Origin: a bacterium
GTDB lineage: Bacteria; Hydrothermota; DG-26; JAUXAN01
DNA: 64,000 bases
Direction: 5' to 3'
NCBI GenBank assembly: GCA_030619885.1
Contig: JAUXAN010000001.1
Span: 75,474-139,473 of the forward strand
Below are positions 42,852-60,077 of the stretch, piece after piece. Made by a program: the position numbers and the translations under genes. Under the pieces are notes generated by a model. That model made no database searches, was not told the origin of the DNA, and worked only from the letters and a program-made list of their open reading frames with translations. How positions within the stretch are numbered: the stretch's first letter is position 1; the number at the start of each line of letters is the position of its first letter.

Positions 42852-43030
42852 CCGTGAGGTAGAATCCTTATAGTTGCACCTCCCTGGTTTTGGGTTAAAT
42901 CTTCTAACCTTTATTGAATACCGAAAACTTGGGGGTTGCAACTTTTTCATAGGTAATCCTAATGCCAAATAGTAAGGGCAGGCTTTGTGCGTCTCCTTTT
43001 TTCAATCTCATATAAATCGAGTCTAATCTT

Positions 43031-43280
43031 ACTTTCTCGCTTTCGCACGAAAGCGAGAAACTGTGGTTTCAATCCCCTACAAGTCGGGTCTTCCATCTTC
43101 GCCAAGGCTCCGACGGATTAATCCACCATAGCGAACAATAACTTCTGAGAACCGTCCCGCAGTGGTAAATCACAAGTGTCATTGCGACCCCGACTGGTCG
43201 GGGGAAGCAATCTCCTATCATTTTTGCATTCCATCATTCTAACAATCCCACTTTCTCGCTTTCGCACGAAAGCGAGAAAC
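43031..43280. mobile_element. candidate IS200/IS605-derived palindrome-associated element (PATE-like): two identical 31-bp blocks, each containing a perfect 28-bp palindrome, flanking 190 bp
   Basis: actttctcgctttcgcacgaaagcgagaaac occurs at 43031-43061 and at 43250-43280. The palindrome is tttctcgctttcg-ca-cgaaagcgagaaa. No ORF lies between the copies. Confidence 0.35.
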
Positions 43281-46632: not shown

Positions 46633-46908
46633 TCAATAGGTTTTTTGTTTGTTATACTTGGGCGGTTTACCACCATGCTGTCTTTGATACCTTTGTATTT
46701 CCTGTTTTTCCCGTTTTTCAGCAGAATCCCTTGTTAATGCAACAGTAATAATATTTATGTGTGTAAAAGTGAGACCAGCATTGGCATTTTCGATTGCTCT
46801 CCTATTGGGATCATTTGTAATTCCATACTTGACGACTTCCTTGCCGTCTTTTAGTTCGTAGACCCGGGTATCCCTTTTAGATTCTTTGAATCTTCTGTAT
46901 GCCATCAT
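46633..46908 (-). CDS. GIY-YIG nuclease-family small protein
   Basis: RVYEL.DGKEVVKYGITNDPNRR fits GIY-(x10)-YIG spacing. 91 aa. A consensus sigma-70-type promoter (TTGACA-18-TATAAT) lies upstream. Confidence 0.6.
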   Translation of the reverse strand: MMAYRRFKESKRDTRVYELKDGKEVVKYGITNDPNRRAIENANAGLTFTHINIITVALTRDSAEKREKQEIQRYQRQHGGKPPKYNKQKTY

Positions 46909-47088: not shown

Positions 47089-47523
47089 CTATAGCCGCTT
47101 GTACAGTGGTAAAATAATGGGGGGCAATCCGAGTTTTACAATAGTACTATGAATAAACTCTCTAGCGTATGGCCAACTGTTATGTGGCACATTCATGTCT
47201 TTGAATACAGCAAATATATCCTTATTGATAGTTTTGCTTGAAGAGTATATCAATAATAACTCGAAGTTTATCTTAGCTATAATACTATCTTTGTTGTTCT
47301 CATCCACCATTTGATATTTAAATTTATGTGAAATCTGAAAAGATTCTGTTCCTTCATTAATCAGTTTTATATTATCAGTCAATCTGTTCTGCACAGCAAA
47401 ATTCTCAGGAATATTTTCTGGAAATACCTCTATAGTTGCCTTTTTTAAATATATATCCTCTATCTTGAGTTGTTTAATAAACTCTCTATAAACATCCGGC
47501 TTTACTTTAAATCTTTGCATCAT
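47089..47523 (-). CDS. SecB-like chaperone (TAC-system chaperone)
   Basis: 144 aa that align along the full length of E. coli SecB. The best segment is VPHNSWPYAREFIHSTIVKLGLPPIILP against SecB [27 protein letters not shown]. It is the third gene of the hicA-hicB operon. Confidence 0.75.
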   Translation of the reverse strand: MMQRFKVKPDVYREFIKQLKIEDIYLKKATIEVFPENIPENFAVQNRLTDNIKLINEGTESFQISHKFKYQMVDENNKDSIIAKINFELLLIYSSSKTINKDIFAVFKDMNVPHNSWPYAREFIHSTIVKLGLPPIILPLYKRL

Positions 47524-47532
47524 TATCCTCCA

Positions 47533-48060
47533 TTAATATGCTATAGCTTGCACTTCTCTACTCCTTACTGTCTGATCCTGCAAAGATTCCCTATATTCTT
47601 GTTTCACTTCCTCATGTTTGTGCAGGACTACTATTTTCATTGGTTTCCTTAGTATGCTTTCCGCAAAACGCCAGAGTAGAATTGCAGTTCGATATCTCTC
47701 AGAATTTAAAGTCAAAAGCATACAAATATAAGAATTAAGGCTTGTCCCTTCCTGTCGAGCACGTTCTACTAAAATTCCATGCAAAGTTTTTGGAATTCTA
47801 ACAACAAAACGACCACTATATAATTCATCCTTTTTAGGTAATGGTACTTGTCCTCCTCTTTCTAAAGTTCCCTCAATCCAAGCTCTTTTAGCTCTATTTA
47901 ACTTCTCAGGGATTTGCTCCAATGTTTTTGCATCGCACATACACCCATGAAGATCTATTACTTCCACAAAATATCCACCTTCTTCCATTTCTTCAATCTT
48001 AACTGGGTACTTCAATGACATATAATAGTCAACCAGTTTCTTTAATTCTGCTTTATTCAT
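47533..48060 (-). CDS. hicB: HicB-family antitoxin (HicB RNase-H-like domain plus RHH DNA-binding domain) with a C-terminal extension
   Basis: YPVKIEEMEEGGYFVEVIDLHGCMCDAKTLEQ is the HicB N-terminal domain. GRFVVRIPKTLHGILVERARQEGTSLNSYICMLL is the RHH. About 50 aa of extra C-terminal tail. Confidence 0.8.
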   Translation of the reverse strand: MNKAELKKLVDYYMSLKYPVKIEEMEEGGYFVEVIDLHGCMCDAKTLEQIPEKLNRAKRAWIEGTLERGGQVPLPKKDELYSGRFVVRIPKTLHGILVERARQEGTSLNSYICMLLTLNSERYRTAILLWRFAESILRKPMKIVVLHKHEEVKQEYRESLQDQTVRSREVQAIAY

Positions 48061-48328
48061 TGCTTACCTCCTTATCTATTGCATCAGCAAAAAGATTAAT
48101 AAACTTCTTTTTATATCTTTCAGGCACATCTTCGCTACTGCCATGAGGTCTCTCCAATTGAAGTGAAGGAGATTTTGAATCAGCAGGATAATAAATATTA
48201 AATATAGATCCTTCCTTGGGCTTGACGTCACCAAAACGTTTTGCAAGTCTGATCATTTCTTTAAATGAAAGTTTTTTCCAGTCATTTTTACTTTTAGCCT
48301 TTTTGCAAAGTTTCTTTATACTAGCCAT
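48053..48328 (-). CDS. hicA: HicA-family toxin (YcfA-like)
   Basis: 91 aa. S.KE.I.LAK..G.....KEGS.......S.....LERPH pattern. Overlaps hicB by 8 nt. Confidence 0.55.
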   Translation of the reverse strand: MASIKKLCKKAKSKNDWKKLSFKEMIRLAKRFGDVKPKEGSIFNIYYPADSKSPSLQLERPHGSSEDVPERYKKKFINLFADAIDKEVSNE

Positions 48329-48410
48329 ATAATATCATATATAGTATCATATTGTCAAGTTTTTTTTTACTTAAAACATCCTCAAAATTCTAATTATCTA
48401 AACTTGGGAA

Positions 48411-48612
48411 TCGGGCTGGAATCTAACTTTTCCCCAGTCGTACCCATCAATTCTCTCATCGATGTAATTTCTTTTGAACACGATGATATCAAATCTTGAC
48501 TTTTAACCATTAAACAGATTAAAAAAAGAGGATAGTTTAAGTACACCATACATTACTCCTTTCACTACCCTCCTGATGATTAATATAATATTTTTTAGAA
48601 GTTTGTCAAGGA
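48411..48612 (-). repeat. unit 1 of a duplicated ~200-bp promoter-bearing repeat
   Basis: About 85% identical to 48998-49206 over ~140 bp. On the minus strand it carries TTGACA-17-ATATTA followed by a GGAGT-ATG short ORF that is not conserved between the two copies. Confidence 0.6.
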
Positions 48613-48712
48613 AAAATCGACCTATCTTTGGATCCGTATGGAATGCCCCGAGTAAAACGAGGGGCTAATGGTCAGATTTTTCTGACCCCACGCCTTATAA
48701 CTCCTTCAAGGG
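48611..48712. repeat. copy e of element X, flanked by GTCAAG direct repeats and embedded in a longer repeat
   Basis: The copy without X (49198 onward) reads ttgtcaag|aaaaaaaggcattttgttgc. Copy e reads ttgtcaag[X]gtcaagggaaaaggcattttgttgc. Confidence 0.55.
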
Positions 48713-48869: not shown

Positions 48870-49031
48870 ATGAGAAAAGAGAAGAAGAGCGTGTATATTG
48901 ATACAACGATTCCCAGTTATTATTTTGAAGACCGCAAAGATTTTCGTCTCTACAGAGAAATAACCCGTAGATGGTGGGATATAATCTCCTTATGGGGTCG
49001 CGCTGGAATCTGGAATTTAACTATTTCATAG
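48870..49031 (+). pseudogene. possible N-terminal fragment of a PIN-domain (VapC-like) toxin gene, truncated by or fused into a repeat element
   Basis: 53-codon ORF immediately after a TTGACA-17-ATATAA promoter. KSVYIDTTIPSYYFEDRKD resembles the PIN N-terminal hhhDT..h motif. The ORF runs into repeat copy 2 at about 48998. Confidence 0.3.
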
Positions 49032-49206
49032 TCATACACATTATTTCTGCCATCGACATATTTCCTTTTGAACACGATGATATCAAATCTTGACTCTTAA
49101 CCATTAAACAAATTAAAAAAATGAGGGTAGTTTAAGTACACCATACATTACTCCTTTCACTACCCTCCTGATATTTAATATAAGATATTTTAAAAATTTG
49201 TCAAGA
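48998..49206 (-). repeat. unit 2 of the duplicated ~200-bp promoter-bearing repeat
   Basis: See unit 1. On the minus strand it would drive transcription antisense to the PIN-like fragment ORF. Confidence 0.6.
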
Positions 49207-49374
49207 AAAAAAGGCATTTTGTTGCAAAAAATAGGACGCTCATACGGATCGTACGACAGATTAAATCAAGGAAAAACGAGAATATCTTTTACAATTTTAA
49301 TCCTGTTCACCCTCGCACCTAACATAGGTGCGGGGTTCATCCTGTCAAGGATATTGGGGTGAGAAGTGGAACTT

Positions 49375-55939: not shown

Positions 55940-55974
55940 ATCTAAAATATATCTTAACGACCAAAAATTGTCAA

Positions 55975-56131
55975 GAAAAATCGACCTATCTCTGGATCCG
56001 TATGGAATGTACCGAGTGAACCGAGGTGCTAATGGTCAGATTTTTTCCATACGGATCCCATATCCCTACGGATCCGTATGGACGGGTCTGCGACCGTAGG
56101 GACTGACCCCATGCTTTATACCTCCTTCAAG
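55975..56131. repeat. copy f of a ~100-bp GGATCCGTATGG-containing repeat (element X), itself carrying a ~56-bp palindromic insert
   Basis: Aligns base-for-base with 48611-48712. An extra segment ccatacggatcccatatccctacggatccgtatggacgggtctgcgaccgtaggga sits in the loop of the ggtcaga/tctgacc hairpin. Confidence 0.65.
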
Positions 56132-56476: not shown

Positions 56477-58219
56477 CTACCTTATCAATATCATCTTACT
56501 CGTATATCGAAAATCACCTGAAGACAACTGATAGAAGTAAACGCCATCTGGAACTGCTCTTCCAGATTCATCCCTGCCATTCCAGACTACTGAATACATG
56601 GAAGACCAAGGATGTTGACACGGAGTGACACGGAAAGTATGGACAAGGCGTCCGGATGTATCGTATATCTTCAAATTTACGTTATTCGTCTTTCGTTCAT
56701 CGTTCATCGAAGGTAACGAATAACTAATAACGGTGAACGAATTGAATGGATTCGGATAGTTTTGTGCAAGTTCAGTTGGAGTAGAAGGCACACCATAAAC
56801 TGTAACCATCATCGGACCCCACCAGGTTGTATTTCCATAAGCATCAACATCTCCCAATTTGTAATAGTATGTTATTCCAGCAGTGACATCGGTATCAGTA
56901 TATGAATATTCCTGAGCATATGGTGTAGAGCCTTGCGACTTGATTCTTACGACTTCTTCGTATCCGCCATCCCTTTCACTTGAACGGACAATTACCCATT
57001 CGTATGTATCGATCTCACTCTCCGTCCGCCACTTCAAGACAACCTTAGCGTTAAATGATTCACCAGTGAAGGAAGTGAGTTCTACACCCATAGAAGTAGG
57101 CGAATATTTTACAGTATAATAGTCCTCATTTCCGCCTATATACGATTGACCTGTCACGATTATGTTGCCCGACCCGTCAACTGCGACATCCCATGCTCTA
57201 TCATTATTCCCGTTATCTACTGTATCTGACCAGATTATGTTACCATCCGAGTCATACTTAACCGTATAATAGTCCCAATTTCCGCCTATATTCGAACCTC
57301 CTGTCACGATTATATTGCCCGCTCCGTCAACCGCCACTCCATTAGCATAATCATTGTTTCCATTATCTACTGTATCTGACCAGATTATGTTACCATCCGG
57401 GTCATACTTAACCGTATAATAGTCCCAATTTCCGCTTATACTCGAACCTCCTGTCACGATTATATTGCCCGCTCCGTCAACCGCCACTCCATTAGCATAG
57501 TCATTGTTTCCATTATCGATTGTATCTGCCCAGATTATGTTACCGCTCGAATTATACTTAACCGTATAATAGTCCCAATTTCCGCTTATAACCGATCTGC
57601 CTGTCACGATTATATTGCCAGCACTGTCAACCGCTACACCCAAAGCCCAATCATCGGCTCCATTATCGATTGTGTCTGCCCAGAGTATAGTCCCACCCGT
57701 ATCATACTTGACCGTATAATAATCGTAACCTACGCCTATATTCGATCTGCCTGTCACGATTATATTGTCTGCTCCATCAACTGCTACATCCCAAAACAAT
57801 TCATCGCTCCCATTATCAATTGTATCTGCCCAGATTATGGTGCCGCCCGGATCATACTTAACCGTATAACAATCCCAATTTGCGCCTGTACCAGAGCGAC
57901 CTGTCACGATTATATTGCCCGCTCTGTCAACTGCTACTCCATAACCATAATCCCAATTCCCGTTATCGATTGTATCTGTCCAGATTATGTTATCATCCGG
58001 GCCATACTTGACCGTATAATAGTCCGCGTTTCCTATATATGAAACACCTGCCACGATTATGTTGTCAACACTGTCAACTACTACACCGTAAGCTTCATCA
58101 ATACTCCCGTTATCAATTGTACCTGTCCATACTATTTTGTAATCATCTGCGTTCAGAGGTGCACTTGCAAAGGCTACGAGCGTAATTGCTAACCCACTCA
58201 AAAATTTATAGATACGCAT
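56477..58219 (-). CDS. secreted protein with eight SBBP-type beta-propeller repeats and a T9SS C-terminal sorting domain
   Basis: Start trimmed to MRIYKF (signal peptide, AGAGG RBS). Eight units of YYTVKYD..GNIIW.DT.DNG..D.A.GVAVD.AGNIIVTG.S. C-terminal NYPNPFNSFTVIS...LKIYDTSGRLV...GVYFYQL. Confidence 0.8.
   Translation of the reverse strand: MRIYKFLSGLAITLVAFASAPLNADDYKIVWTGTIDNGSIDEAYGVVVDSVDNIIVAGVSYIGNADYYTVKYGPDDNIIWTDTIDNGNWDYGYGVAVDRAGNIIVTGRSGTGANWDCYTVKYDPGGTIIWADTIDNGSDELFWDVAVDGADNIIVTGRSNIGVGYDYYTVKYDTGGTILWADTIDNGADDWALGVAVDSAGNIIVTGRSVISGNWDYYTVKYNSSGNIIWADTIDNGNNDYANGVAVDGAGNIIVTGGSSISGNWDYYTVKYDPDGNIIWSDTVDNGNNDYANGVAVDGAGNIIVTGGSNIGGNWDYYTVKYDSDGNIIWSDTVDNGNNDRAWDVAVDGSGNIIVTGQSYIGGNEDYYTVKYSPTSMGVELTSFTGESFNAKVVLKWRTESEIDTYEWVIVRSSERDGGYEEVVRIKSQGSTPYAQEYSYTDTDVTAGITYYYKLGDVDAYGNTTWWGPMMVTVYGVPSTPTELAQNYPNPFNSFTVISYSLPSMNDERKTNNVNLKIYDTSGRLVHTFRVTPCQHPWSSMYSVVWNGRDESGRAVPDGVYFYQLSSGDFRYTSKMILIR
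57034..58144 (-). repeat. eight tandem ~138-bp coding repeats (SBBP repeat units) inside the T9SS cargo gene
   Basis: Near-identical DNA blocks (e.g. ccgtataatagtcccaatttccgc...ctgtcacgattatattgcc) recur with ~138-bp periodicity. Confidence 0.8.
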
Positions 58220-58334
58220 ACTACCTCTTTTTCCCATCTCTACCTTTATATATATATATATTATAAACTGAGTATAAACGAAATGTAAATTTCTGGCAAA
58301 GAAGAGATAGCAGATAGGGGTCAACAGGCTGACC

Positions 58335-60077
58335 ATGAAGGTCTTGACACTTGATAGAAGTTTTTTAATACTGTTTGAGATGAAGTTGGTTCTGTTTTTC
58401 GCTATTTTAGCACTCTATATCTCTACACTCTGTCCCACTGTCGTGTTCATCGATTCAGGAGAGTTGACTACCGTTTCATATACCCTCGGTATTGCACACC
58501 CAACAGGTTATCCACTCTATACCATAATGGGAAGAATGTTTACTTTGATACCTTTCGGAAATGTTGCACTTAGAGTAAATCTGCTCTCTGCAATCCTCTC
58601 AGCACTTACTATTGTTATCCTTTATAGTTTAATATCGCTCTGCCTTGGAAGTTCATCTCTTTTCCCCCTTTTAGGTTCCCTGCTTTTCGCTTTCTCTTAT
58701 GTTTTCTGGCGAAACTCCACAGTGGCGGAGGTATATCCACTAACAACCTTTTTCACCGCTCTGTTACTTCTCATCTTTGTAAAATGGCAAAGAAAAAAAG
58801 AGACGCATATCTTATACCTGCTCTTCTTTCTCATCGGGCTGGCTTTCTGTAACCATCTGATAATCTTTACAGCGTCAGTGCCAGTTGCAGTCTTTGTTCT
58901 CAAAGAGAAACGCCCGCTATTCGATAAACATCTTTTTAATCTGTGCGTGTTGTTCATTTTAGGACTCTCGTTATACCTTTACCTCCCAATCCGTGCAACA
59001 AGAGAACCTCTTTTGAACTGGGGAAATCCTACGGTATTTGAAAGATTCATCTGGCATATAACAGGCAAGCAGTACAGGGTGTGGATGTTTTCCCAATCCG
59101 TACCTATTTTAGGCAAAAGGCTTTATAATTATGTAAGACTTCTTTTTGAACAGTATCCACCATATATTCTATGGATTGCTCCCTTGGGCATAATCGAGAG
59201 TGTGAGGAAGTTAAAGCTGATCGGCTGGGTAATGCTGAGCACTTTCCTGCTCAATATCTTCTATTCGATAAACTACGACATACCAGATATAGACTCTTAT
59301 TTTCTCATCTCATTTTTAATCGTATCAATATGGTTGGGGTTCGGATTTAATAGACTTTTCACCTCCATCTTCCGTTTGAAAAAATTCGCATACATTCTGT
59401 TAGGACTCTGTTTAATCCCTGCAATTAAAAATTACCCGAGGGTGAACCAGAGAAAAAATTATATCGCATACAACTATGGTATGAATGTTCTAAAATCTGT
59501 AAAGCATAACGGGATTGTCCTGACAAATCTGTGGGATATTTATTCACCCATACTCTATATAAGGTATGTAGAAAATAAAAGAAGAGATGTAGTTATGATA
59601 GATAAAGAACTGTTGAGAAGGTCGTGGTATTTCAAATATTTAAATAGAGAATACCCATGGCTGATAGAAGACTCAAAACTTGAGGTGAAAGATTACCTGA
59701 AACTATTGGATGACTTTGAACATAATAGACTGAAAGACCCTAATGAGATACAGAGAAACTTTATAAGAATGATAGACAGTTTCATCTACAAAAACATCAG
59801 TGAAAGACCTGTTTATACAACATTTGTAAATGGATATGACAGAGATATCAGAGAAATTGCACCGAGCCTCTTCAGAATACCCCACGGGTTGATTTTCCAA
59901 TTCGATTCCACCGAGTCATACACCCCTTTCTCTTACGATTCTTTTGACTTGAGTGGGATATTTGATGAATCGGTCTATAAAGACAAAAGGACAAAGATTT
60001 TAATTTCAAATTATCCGAAGATGATGAGATTGAGGGAGCTATGGCTTCAAAAAATTGGAAAATATGAAACTCATTGA
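58335..60077 (+). CDS. DUF2723-family polytopic membrane protein (GT-C-like putative glycosyltransferase)
   Basis: N-terminal TL.PTV.F.DSGE...S..LG.AHPTGYPLY...GR.F signature. At least 10 TM helices. The start may instead be at MKLVLFF. Confidence 0.65.
   Translation: MKVLTLDRSFLILFEMKLVLFFAILALYISTLCPTVVFIDSGELTTVSYTLGIAHPTGYPLYTIMGRMFTLIPFGNVALRVNLLSAILSALTIVILYSLISLCLGSSSLFPLLGSLLFAFSYVFWRNSTVAEVYPLTTFFTALLLLIFVKWQRKKETHILYLLFFLIGLAFCNHLIIFTASVPVAVFVLKEKRPLFDKHLFNLCVLFILGLSLYLYLPIRATREPLLNWGNPTVFERFIWHITGKQYRVWMFSQSVPILGKRLYNYVRLLFEQYPPYILWIAPLGIIESVRKLKLIGWVMLSTFLLNIFYSINYDIPDIDSYFLISFLIVSIWLGFGFNRLFTSIFRLKKFAYILLGLCLIPAIKNYPRVNQRKNYIAYNYGMNVLKSVKHNGIVLTNLWDIYSPILYIRYVENKRRDVVMIDKELLRRSWYFKYLNREYPWLIEDSKLEVKDYLKLLDDFEHNRLKDPNEIQRNFIRMIDSFIYKNISERPVYTTFVNGYDRDIREIAPSLFRIPHGLIFQFDSTESYTPFSYDSFDLSGIFDESVYKDKRTKILISNYPKMMRLRELWLQKIGKYETH

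Follow-up and report, generated by a model that had tools for sequence, protein, structure and literature searches.

A probable HicAB-type toxin-antitoxin-chaperone operon whose HicA-fold protein lacks the catalytic histidine

Results

We analysed a 64,000-nucleotide stretch of bacterial DNA (contig JAUXAN010000001.1 of assembly GCA_030619885.1, positions 75,474 to 139,473), hereafter the window, in which three contiguous minus-strand genes probably form a chromosomal HicAB-type toxin-antitoxin-chaperone (TAC) module. An earlier reading of this DNA, made without database searches (the sequence-only reading), had proposed a hicA, hicB and secB-like operon encoding proteins of 91, 175 and 144 amino acids (aa). 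The coordinates it gave were exact (Table 1), and our analysis confirmed the proposed operon and upheld all three family assignments.

The hicA-like and hicB genes share the 8-nt overlap that had been claimed (48053-48060), and the gap of 9 nt reported before the third gene is also exact when counted from the hicB stop codon to the first ATG, the distance to the second ATG being 12 nt. A Shine-Dalgarno (SD) sequence for hicB, GGAGG, lies within the 3' end of the hicA-like gene (48071-48067), 7 nt 5' of the ATG; that of the chaperone gene, also GGAGG (47531-47527), is followed 6 nt downstream by the second ATG (47520). Since this spacing is the better one, the homologues begin with MKKFKV and the NCBI-called protein P0001 has 143 aa, translation of the chaperone is likelier to start at the second ATG, giving a product of 143 aa. 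TAC systems have this same arrangement, in which the genes for toxin, antitoxin and SecB-like chaperone follow one another with overlaps or short gaps; the SD sequences are placed for coupling, and the three genes are translationally coupled.

Table 1. Coordinates of the operon and its promoter region in the window
Feature	Position	Strand	Basis
hicA-like gene, putative toxin (91 aa)	48053..48328	minus	ORF prediction
hicB, complete open reading frame (175 aa)	47533..48060	minus	
hicB, part encoding the HicB N-domain and the ribbon-helix-helix domain	47707..48060	minus	Pfam PF15919 and PF05534
hicB 3' part (residues 119-175 and stop), candidate chaperone addiction domain	47533..47706	minus	lies beyond the Pfam domains
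SecB-like TAC chaperone gene (144 aa from the first ATG)	47089..47523	minus	AF2/Foldseek, profiles
Conserved promoter and candidate operator block	48329..48368	minus	promoter scan, repeat search, cross-locus alignment

Homologous triplets were found elsewhere, and all three genes are under purifying selection, with dN/dS values of about 0.1 that are rough because dS was saturated (1.2-1.6). The existence of these triplets, together with dN/dS values of about 0.08-0.13, led us to conclude that the three open reading frames (ORFs) are not products of chance.

Immediately upstream of the hicA-like gene lies a block of about 40 nt made up, in this order, of an A-tract, a TTGACA element (48358-48353), a spacer and a -10-like TATTAT element that ends directly at the ATG. 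The promoter scan gave it a score of 11 out of 12, with TG. A 12-nt tandem repeat or palindrome was detected in the block, and its spacer contains two TGATA direct repeats 12 nt apart. The block is near-invariant in five loci that have unrelated DNA beyond it, and a sixth (L017) has it as well; this conservation supports its identification as a shared, autoregulated promoter. As no SD sequence precedes the hicA-like ATG and the -10 element abuts it, the first cistron probably has no leader or a very short one.

The product of the third gene is predicted to be a SecB-like chaperone, and for its SecB fold the structural evidence was decisive and the sequence evidence weak. An AlphaFold2 (AF2) model built from a seven-sequence alignment (mean predicted local distance difference test score, pLDDT, 80.8; predicted template modelling score, pTM, 0.76) had SecB topology, with a four-stranded beta-sheet and a long alpha1 helix carrying the motif WPYAREFIHSTIVKLGLPP, soon after which the protein ends. 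When this model was compared with the Protein Data Bank (PDB) by Foldseek, the best match was Mycobacterium tuberculosis Rv1957 with its bound antitoxin peptide (5mtw; E 4.4e-8, TM-score 0.75-0.78), followed by the SecB proteins of Haemophilus influenzae and Escherichia coli (1fx3, 1ozb and 1qyn; E about 1e-6, TM-score 0.66-0.73). A SecB-fold match, whose absence the sequence-only reading had named as grounds for abandoning its proposal, was thus obtained. Six of the seven members of the chaperone family matched the Pfam SecB profile (best E 8.7e-5), and the window protein also matched the PADLOC model PD-T4-9_C (E 8.8e-8), PD-T4-9 being the CmdTAC system and component C (CmdC) its SecB-like chaperone.

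The sequence-only reading had aligned the 144-aa protein with E. coli SecB over its full length, a claim that holds at the level of profile and structure. As a pairwise similarity we rejected it, since hhalign aligned 22 columns only (residues 113-134 with 103-124; E 7.7e-4). This short segment, which had correctly been singled out as the strongest, is the helix-alpha1 motif described as conserved in all solitary and TAC SecBs (Sala 2013), and in the window protein it aligns with both E. coli SecB and Rv1957. PDB searches with single sequences or small profiles of the 144-aa and 91-aa proteins gave marginal or spurious matches only: Rv1957 was found with the chaperone at E 0.28-1.8 over 27 residues, and an N-terminal match to the lipoprotein 7rag was judged to be due to chance.

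Could the product of this gene be the general export chaperone SecB, or a generic holdase, encoded by chance beside an ordinary hicAB pair, the HicB tail being an unrelated oligomerisation or regulatory extension? The fold is common to export chaperones and, according to the literature, some TAC chaperones complement an E. coli secB mutant. However, the gene travels with the hicA-like gene and hicB in at least six unrelated contexts, with its own SD sequence and a gap of 9-15 nt, and the proteins that its product matches best, in structure and by profile, are chaperones dedicated to TACs. The scores against the NCBIfam equivalogs of export SecB (TIGR00809 and NF00439x) were 14-17 bits, far below the cut-offs of 103-223, for which reason we call the protein SecB-like and not SecB proper. 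A family of about seven clusters among 5.8 billion proteins does not have the distribution of a housekeeping gene, and the protein, which ends soon after alpha1, appears to lack the SecA-contacting C-terminal helix. We therefore regard this alternative as very unlikely and treat the gene as part of the module, in which it evolves under constraint (dN/dS 0.13).

A related gene was observed in a Bacillota metagenome-assembled genome (MAG; DATFAS010000225, locus L009, 208-1277). Its product is 30% identical to the window chaperone, contains the same NSWPYAREF...GLPP motif and matches PD-T4-9_C (E 1.8e-8). The gene overlaps the end of a gene encoding a 223-aa protein of unknown family, and no HicB is present; this locus may be a TAC or antitoxin-chaperone (AC) system with a different, uncharacterised upstream partner.

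The profile search proposed earlier for the 175-aa protein bore out the HicB N-domain and the ribbon-helix-helix (RHH) domain assigned to it, as residues 18-77 match PF15919 (HicB_lk_antitox; 33.6 bits, cut-off 27) and residues 79-113 match PF05534 (HicB/RHH; 34.9 bits, cut-off 21). The protein thus has the partial RNase H-like N-domain and the DNA-binding RHH domain of the HicB family, both at curated thresholds; PHROG also returned HicB-like matches, and matches to HicB in the PDB were weak. An RHH domain is carried by all TAC HicBs (Sala 2013). The HicB domains end at about residue 118 and leave a tail of 57 aa (119-175), where about 50 had been estimated. This tail has a hydrophobic and aromatic patch, TAILLWRF (Y123, W130 and F132), followed by a charged stretch containing Y156 and Y175. 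All seven homologues of the module have it, with lengths of 46-59 aa and an aromatic content of 8-14%, and in most of them a Trp lies in the hydrophobic patch.

The tail is by far the most variable part of the operon: mean pairwise identity across loci was 75% for the HicB N-domain, 73% for the RHH domain, 68% for the toxin, 58% for the chaperone and 24% for the tail, and the dN/dS was 0.08 for the folded part of HicB and 0.61 for the tail. A C-terminal antitoxin extension variable in length and sequence is characteristic of TACs, in which such chaperone addiction domains (ChADs) confer aggregation and chaperone dependence (Bordes 2016, PMC5105189). Aromatic ChAD residues dock in equivalent pockets of the chaperone tetramer, and phage proteins compete with these residues. 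In the TAC of Methylomonas methanica MC09 (Mmet-TAC; HicA Metme_2813, HicB Metme_2812 and SecB-TA), the ChAD was mapped to HicB residues 119-159 (PMC5105189). The tail resembles published ChADs in that it evolves fast, is rich in aromatic residues and starts at the same residue, 119, as the Mmet-HicB ChAD, and we regard it as a candidate ChAD. Identity of the tail correlated with that of the chaperone (Spearman 0.73), yet the tail correlated likewise with every other part of the operon, and co-variation was rejected as independent evidence of an interaction.

Another possibility is that the tail is a folded C-terminal domain of HicB, for instance a longer dimerisation helix that follows the RHH domain, and that the chaperone serves the toxin or some other client. 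Its first 20 residues or so share an amphipathic hydrophobic periodicity across subgroups (TAILLWRFAESIL, IETLLEDIKQMMV and IQTLVDEIKGVVL), and the CmdTAC antitoxin also assists the folding of its toxin. Such a domain would not be expected to vary so strongly in length and sequence (24% identity and a dN/dS near 0.6), nor to begin exactly where the mapped Mmet-HicB ChAD does. This explanation is disfavoured and, in our view, improbable next to that of a candidate ChAD.

The 91-aa protein, read earlier as a HicA-like toxin, has a Lys-rich helical N-terminal extension (residues 1-21) followed by an alpha-beta-beta-beta-alpha core (22-79). The AF2 model (pLDDT 79) places the helical extension before a core with the topology of the double-stranded RNA-binding domain (dsRBD)-like fold of the HicA family, and the best Foldseek match, albeit non-significant (E 0.63), was Burkholderia pseudomallei HicA. 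Seven of nine close relatives weakly matched HicA_toxin, with a best E value of 7.3e-4 and a best score of 20 bits. The profile of the HicA-like family, searched exhaustively with HMMER against 1.84 billion representatives, retrieved six proteins at E<=1e-3, and a widened word-indexed search retrieved 13; neither search connected the family directly with canonical HicA or with Mmet-HicA at E<=1e-3. Two of the profile matches, P0018 (E 2.7e-7) and P0020 (E 9e-5), bridge the family to HicA: with 26.3 and 26.1 bits they come just short of the Pfam HicA_toxin cut-off of 27, a PF07927 annotation is precomputed for both, and a hicB gene follows each of them. When PDB sequences were searched with P0018, nothing but noise from protein disulfide isomerases came up. 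The weak matches of the relatives, the two bridging proteins and the core topology of the model together make the assignment of a HicA fold to the 91-aa protein sound, as a prediction from sequence and model.

A feature that the sequence-only reading did not notice is the loss of the catalytic histidine. The Gly-x-His motif of HicA, canonically G-S-H, reads G41-S42-I43 in the window protein and in all its close relatives (alignment A4). The sequence GSK is found in P0017, and the most divergent member, P0015, is devoid of the Gly-Ser, while GSH is kept in the two nearest outgroup relatives, P0018 and P0020, and in the canonical HicA encoded at two of the homologous loci (L006 and L007). The missing residue corresponds to H24 of B. 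pseudomallei HicA, H28 of Yersinia pestis HicA3, H23 of E. coli HicA and H36 of Streptococcus pneumoniae HicA; it has been described as the sole conserved catalytic residue, and its replacement by Ala in these four HicAs abolishes RNase activity and toxicity. As the canonical catalytic His is replaced by Ile, the biochemical activity of the HicA-like toxin is uncertain.

It is a serious, though minority, possibility that the toxin is dead or repurposed, its RNase activity having been lost with the histidine. The locus would then be an AC-like regulatory module or, in a second variant, the protein would be a non-catalytic RNA- or ribosome-binding inhibitor or adaptor. The pattern of GSI in all close members, GSK in P0017, loss of the motif in P0015 and GSH in the outgroups speaks for this explanation, the His-to-Ala mutants of four HicAs point the same way, and toxin-less AC systems exist in the literature. 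A decaying pseudogene, however, would not show purifying selection over the whole protein (dN/dS 0.12 in the core and 0.09 in the N-terminal extension), nor 33 positions invariant in the family, including those of KPHG (H62) and DVPxxYKK. Moreover, the hicA-like gene is retained everywhere as the first gene and adjoins hicB in every locus examined, with the sole reservation of a 1-nt homopolymer difference in L017. This strong purifying selection and the invariant positions indicate that the HicA-like protein is functional.

An active toxin of a non-canonical kind fits the same data equally well. Other invariant residues, K38, Y47, H62, Y72, K73 and K74, may enable such a protein to cleave RNA or to bind it. 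We tentatively envisage, as a reading with less than even odds, a clade of toxins devoid of the His-based RNase site that would act by another chemistry or by non-catalytic binding of RNA or ribosomes, paired with a phage-sensing SecB-like partner in a candidate phylum, Stahliibacteriota (WOR-3), in which no defence toxin-antitoxin system has been studied. The surfaces that could be involved, proposed just as tentatively, are the invariant KPHG...DVPxxYKK segment and the Lys-rich N-terminal helix.

Two further observations concern the HicA-like family. In L017 (411-475, compared with 5214-5280 of L001), the N-terminal extension is out of frame, with a poly-A run of 6 instead of 7; this is either a sequencing error or real, and the remaining 66 aa would begin at the Met of the HicA core. 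In L010 (215-1916), after the His-keeping HicA P0020 come a 217-aa HicB, whose Phe-rich tail measures about 100 aa, and a third gene whose 242-aa product had no SecB, Pfam, PADLOC or PHROG match; this locus is possibly a HicAB module in which a different protein, and not a SecB, is the third partner.

The module is very rare. Among 5.8 billion proteins the chaperone family comprises 7 clusters and the toxin family 9-13; scans of contigs added one locus from metagenomes and none from viral contigs. The same gene triplet was present wherever the contig sufficed, in at least six different flanking contexts. Its neighbours are SLATT/SMODS genes and a Schlafen-AlbA_2 ATPase gene in L001, a gene for an MmeI-type restriction-modification (RM) enzyme in L004 and L005 (from a Candidatus Stahlbacteria MAG), the res and mod genes of a type III RM system and a second, canonical hicBA pair in L006 and L007, and a urocanase gene in L014; the contigs of L016 and L017 were too short to show neighbours. 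In L006 (81-6740) and L007 the triplet and the canonical hicBA pair lie between res (ResIII/RE_endonuc) and mod (N6_N4_Mtase), and there is an overlap between the chaperone gene and the beginning of the methyltransferase gene. The genome of the closest relative is a Candidatus Stahliibacteriota (WOR-3) MAG, which NCBI places in a candidate phylum outside the FCB (Fibrobacterota, Chlorobiota and Bacteroidota) group.

In the window, three small orphan genes lie immediately downstream of the operon. The first (46633-46908, minus strand) encodes 91 aa with a weak match of URI/GIY-YIG type (Tox-URI2, E 1.3e-3, below the cut-off) and has its own perfect promoter, TTGACA-18-TATAAT (47011-46982); the other two, of 251 aa and 204 aa, the latter a putative membrane protein, had no family matches. 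Farther away, the flanks contain genes for an extracytoplasmic function (ECF) sigma and anti-sigma factor, PDZ and TPR proteins, a pyridoxal phosphate (PLP)-dependent enzyme, a haloacid dehalogenase (HAD) phosphatase and proteins with type IX secretion system (T9SS) tails; the match to a T9SS sorting domain near the operon was near threshold and fits, if loosely, the FCB affiliation suggested by the sequence-only reading. No tRNA or Rfam match was found in the window and no integrase near the operon. The GC content of the operon, about 0.31-0.36, is low yet within the range of nearby segments; for this reason, and as mobile-element markers were missing, we do not claim a horizontally acquired island.

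The description of the surroundings as a repeat-rich island proved weakly true. The 1-kb gap upstream of the operon contains a direct repeat of about 200 nt (48416-48616 and 49010-49211, 87% identity), both copies of which have a promoter-like TTGACA...TATATT site on the minus strand, and a 79-nt partial copy (48603-48681 versus 55968-56045, 91% identity) is found 7 kb away; this repeat may have arisen by duplication of a 5' region or may represent a small mobile element. Elsewhere in the window, two near-identical 37-nt palindromic elements with the core TTTCTCGCTTTCGCACGAAAGCGAGAAA (43025-43061 and 43244-43280, 219 nt apart) lie in the intergenic gap between the PDZ and TPR genes. A tandem repeat with a period of 150 nt (50 aa) and 74-80% identity between copies (57104-58144) is contained in a 619-aa ORF (56477-58336, minus strand).

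Discussion

Our data indicate, with a probability of about 75%, that the locus is a chromosomal HicAB-type TAC module forming one operon transcribed from the conserved promoter that abuts the first start codon. The order of toxin, antitoxin and chaperone genes, their tight spacing and the C-terminal extension of the antitoxin support this reading, as they constitute the published signature of TACs.

Several points weigh against it. The 91-aa protein of the window had no match in Pfam, NCBIfam, PADLOC or PHROG, so that its description as a HicA-like toxin is correct as to fold and is not accompanied by a match to PF07927 at the curated threshold, and only one of five AF2 models of it was confident. 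The absence of the Gly-Ser from P0015 implies that toxicity is not assured. The chaperone is co-linear with the Pfam SecB profile (residues 17-138 with positions 6-125 of 141), and here the earlier expectation of a profile match stood only in part, the score of 18.4 bits being below the cut-off of 26. The link between tail and chaperone is drawn by analogy with characterised TACs, saturation of dS makes the estimates of selection rough, and around the operon in the window the genes are either ordinary or without annotation, none of them being recognisable as a defence gene.

A catalogue of 2013 already listed HicAB-SecB TACs (Sala 2013), and their validation followed in 2016 (Bordes 2016); the novelty of the system was therefore overrated in the sequence-only reading. 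The nearest characterised counterpart is Mmet-TAC, which was shown in E. coli to be a genuine TAC that depends on its chaperone (Bordes et al. 2016 Nat Commun, PMC5105189). Compared by its published description and not by sequence, it consists of the same three families in the same order, its HicB also has an RHH domain and a C-terminal extension, and the mapped ChAD and the tail of the window HicB share their first residue number. The hosts differ, that of Mmet-TAC being a gammaproteobacterium and the closest relative here a Candidatus Stahliibacteriota MAG.

The HigB1-HigA1-SecB-TA system of M. tuberculosis (Rv1955-Rv1957; 5mtw) includes the best structural match of our chaperone, the alpha1 motif YPYIREYVYDLTGRLALPP of Rv1957 being common to the two proteins, and follows the same logic of toxin, antitoxin and chaperone, in which a chaperone tetramer binds an aromatic ChAD. 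In contrast, its toxin and antitoxin are HigB and HigA (RelE-like and helix-turn-helix, respectively) and not HicA and HicB, and the identity between the chaperones is about 15%. In CmdTAC and HigBAC, two antiphage TACs of E. coli, the antitoxin owes its stability to the action of the chaperone on its tail, and a capsid or tail protein of the phage competes for this chaperone. The module described here resembles them in the match of its chaperone to the CmdC model and in that several of its homologues adjoin genes of RM and of systems like the cyclic oligonucleotide-based antiphage signalling system (CBASS). It differs in that their toxins are an ADP-ribosyltransferase and HigB, and the window copy has no recognisable flanking defence genes. 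With respect to the canonical two-gene HicAB systems (E. coli, B. pseudomallei, Y. pestis HicAB3 and S. pneumoniae), the differences are the third, chaperone gene, the 57-aa HicB tail and a HicA-like protein that has a 21-aa N-terminal extension and GSI in place of GSH and lies below Pfam detection.

On the model of M. tuberculosis HigBA1-SecB, Mmet-HicAB-SecB and E. coli HigBAC and CmdTAC, a mechanism can be proposed. A tetramer of the SecB-like protein would bind the aromatic and hydrophobic tail of nascent HicB, keeping HicB soluble and resistant to proteases. The HicB N-domain would then sequester the HicA-like toxin, and the RHH domain would repress the promoter, probably at the TGATA repeats. 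Competing clients, either phage structural proteins, as in antiphage TACs, or proteins unfolded by stress, could titrate the chaperone; in E. coli CmdTAC and HigBAC these clients are phage major capsid or tail proteins. Deprived of its chaperone, HicB would aggregate or be degraded, and the freed toxin would arrest growth, leading to abortive infection or stasis. Chaperone dependence, toxicity and a phage-sensing role are all inferred from these analogous systems. The RM and CBASS-like neighbourhoods of several homologues are consistent with a role in defence, and this setting fits the recent view of TACs as antiphage sensors.

In summary, what is new here is the lineage, a very small and divergent family whose closest genome match is Candidatus Stahliibacteriota, a strongly conserved promoter block abutting the start codon and a HicA-fold toxin devoid of the catalytic His. 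Our work thus extends the HicAB-type TACs to a very rare, divergent family often found near RM or CBASS-like genes, and most of it represents well-supported annotation and not discovery. Real biochemical interest attaches to one point, the His-less HicA-fold toxin: should this protein have remained toxic, the HicA scaffold would support a second mechanism, and filters based on the catalytic motif would miss such toxins.

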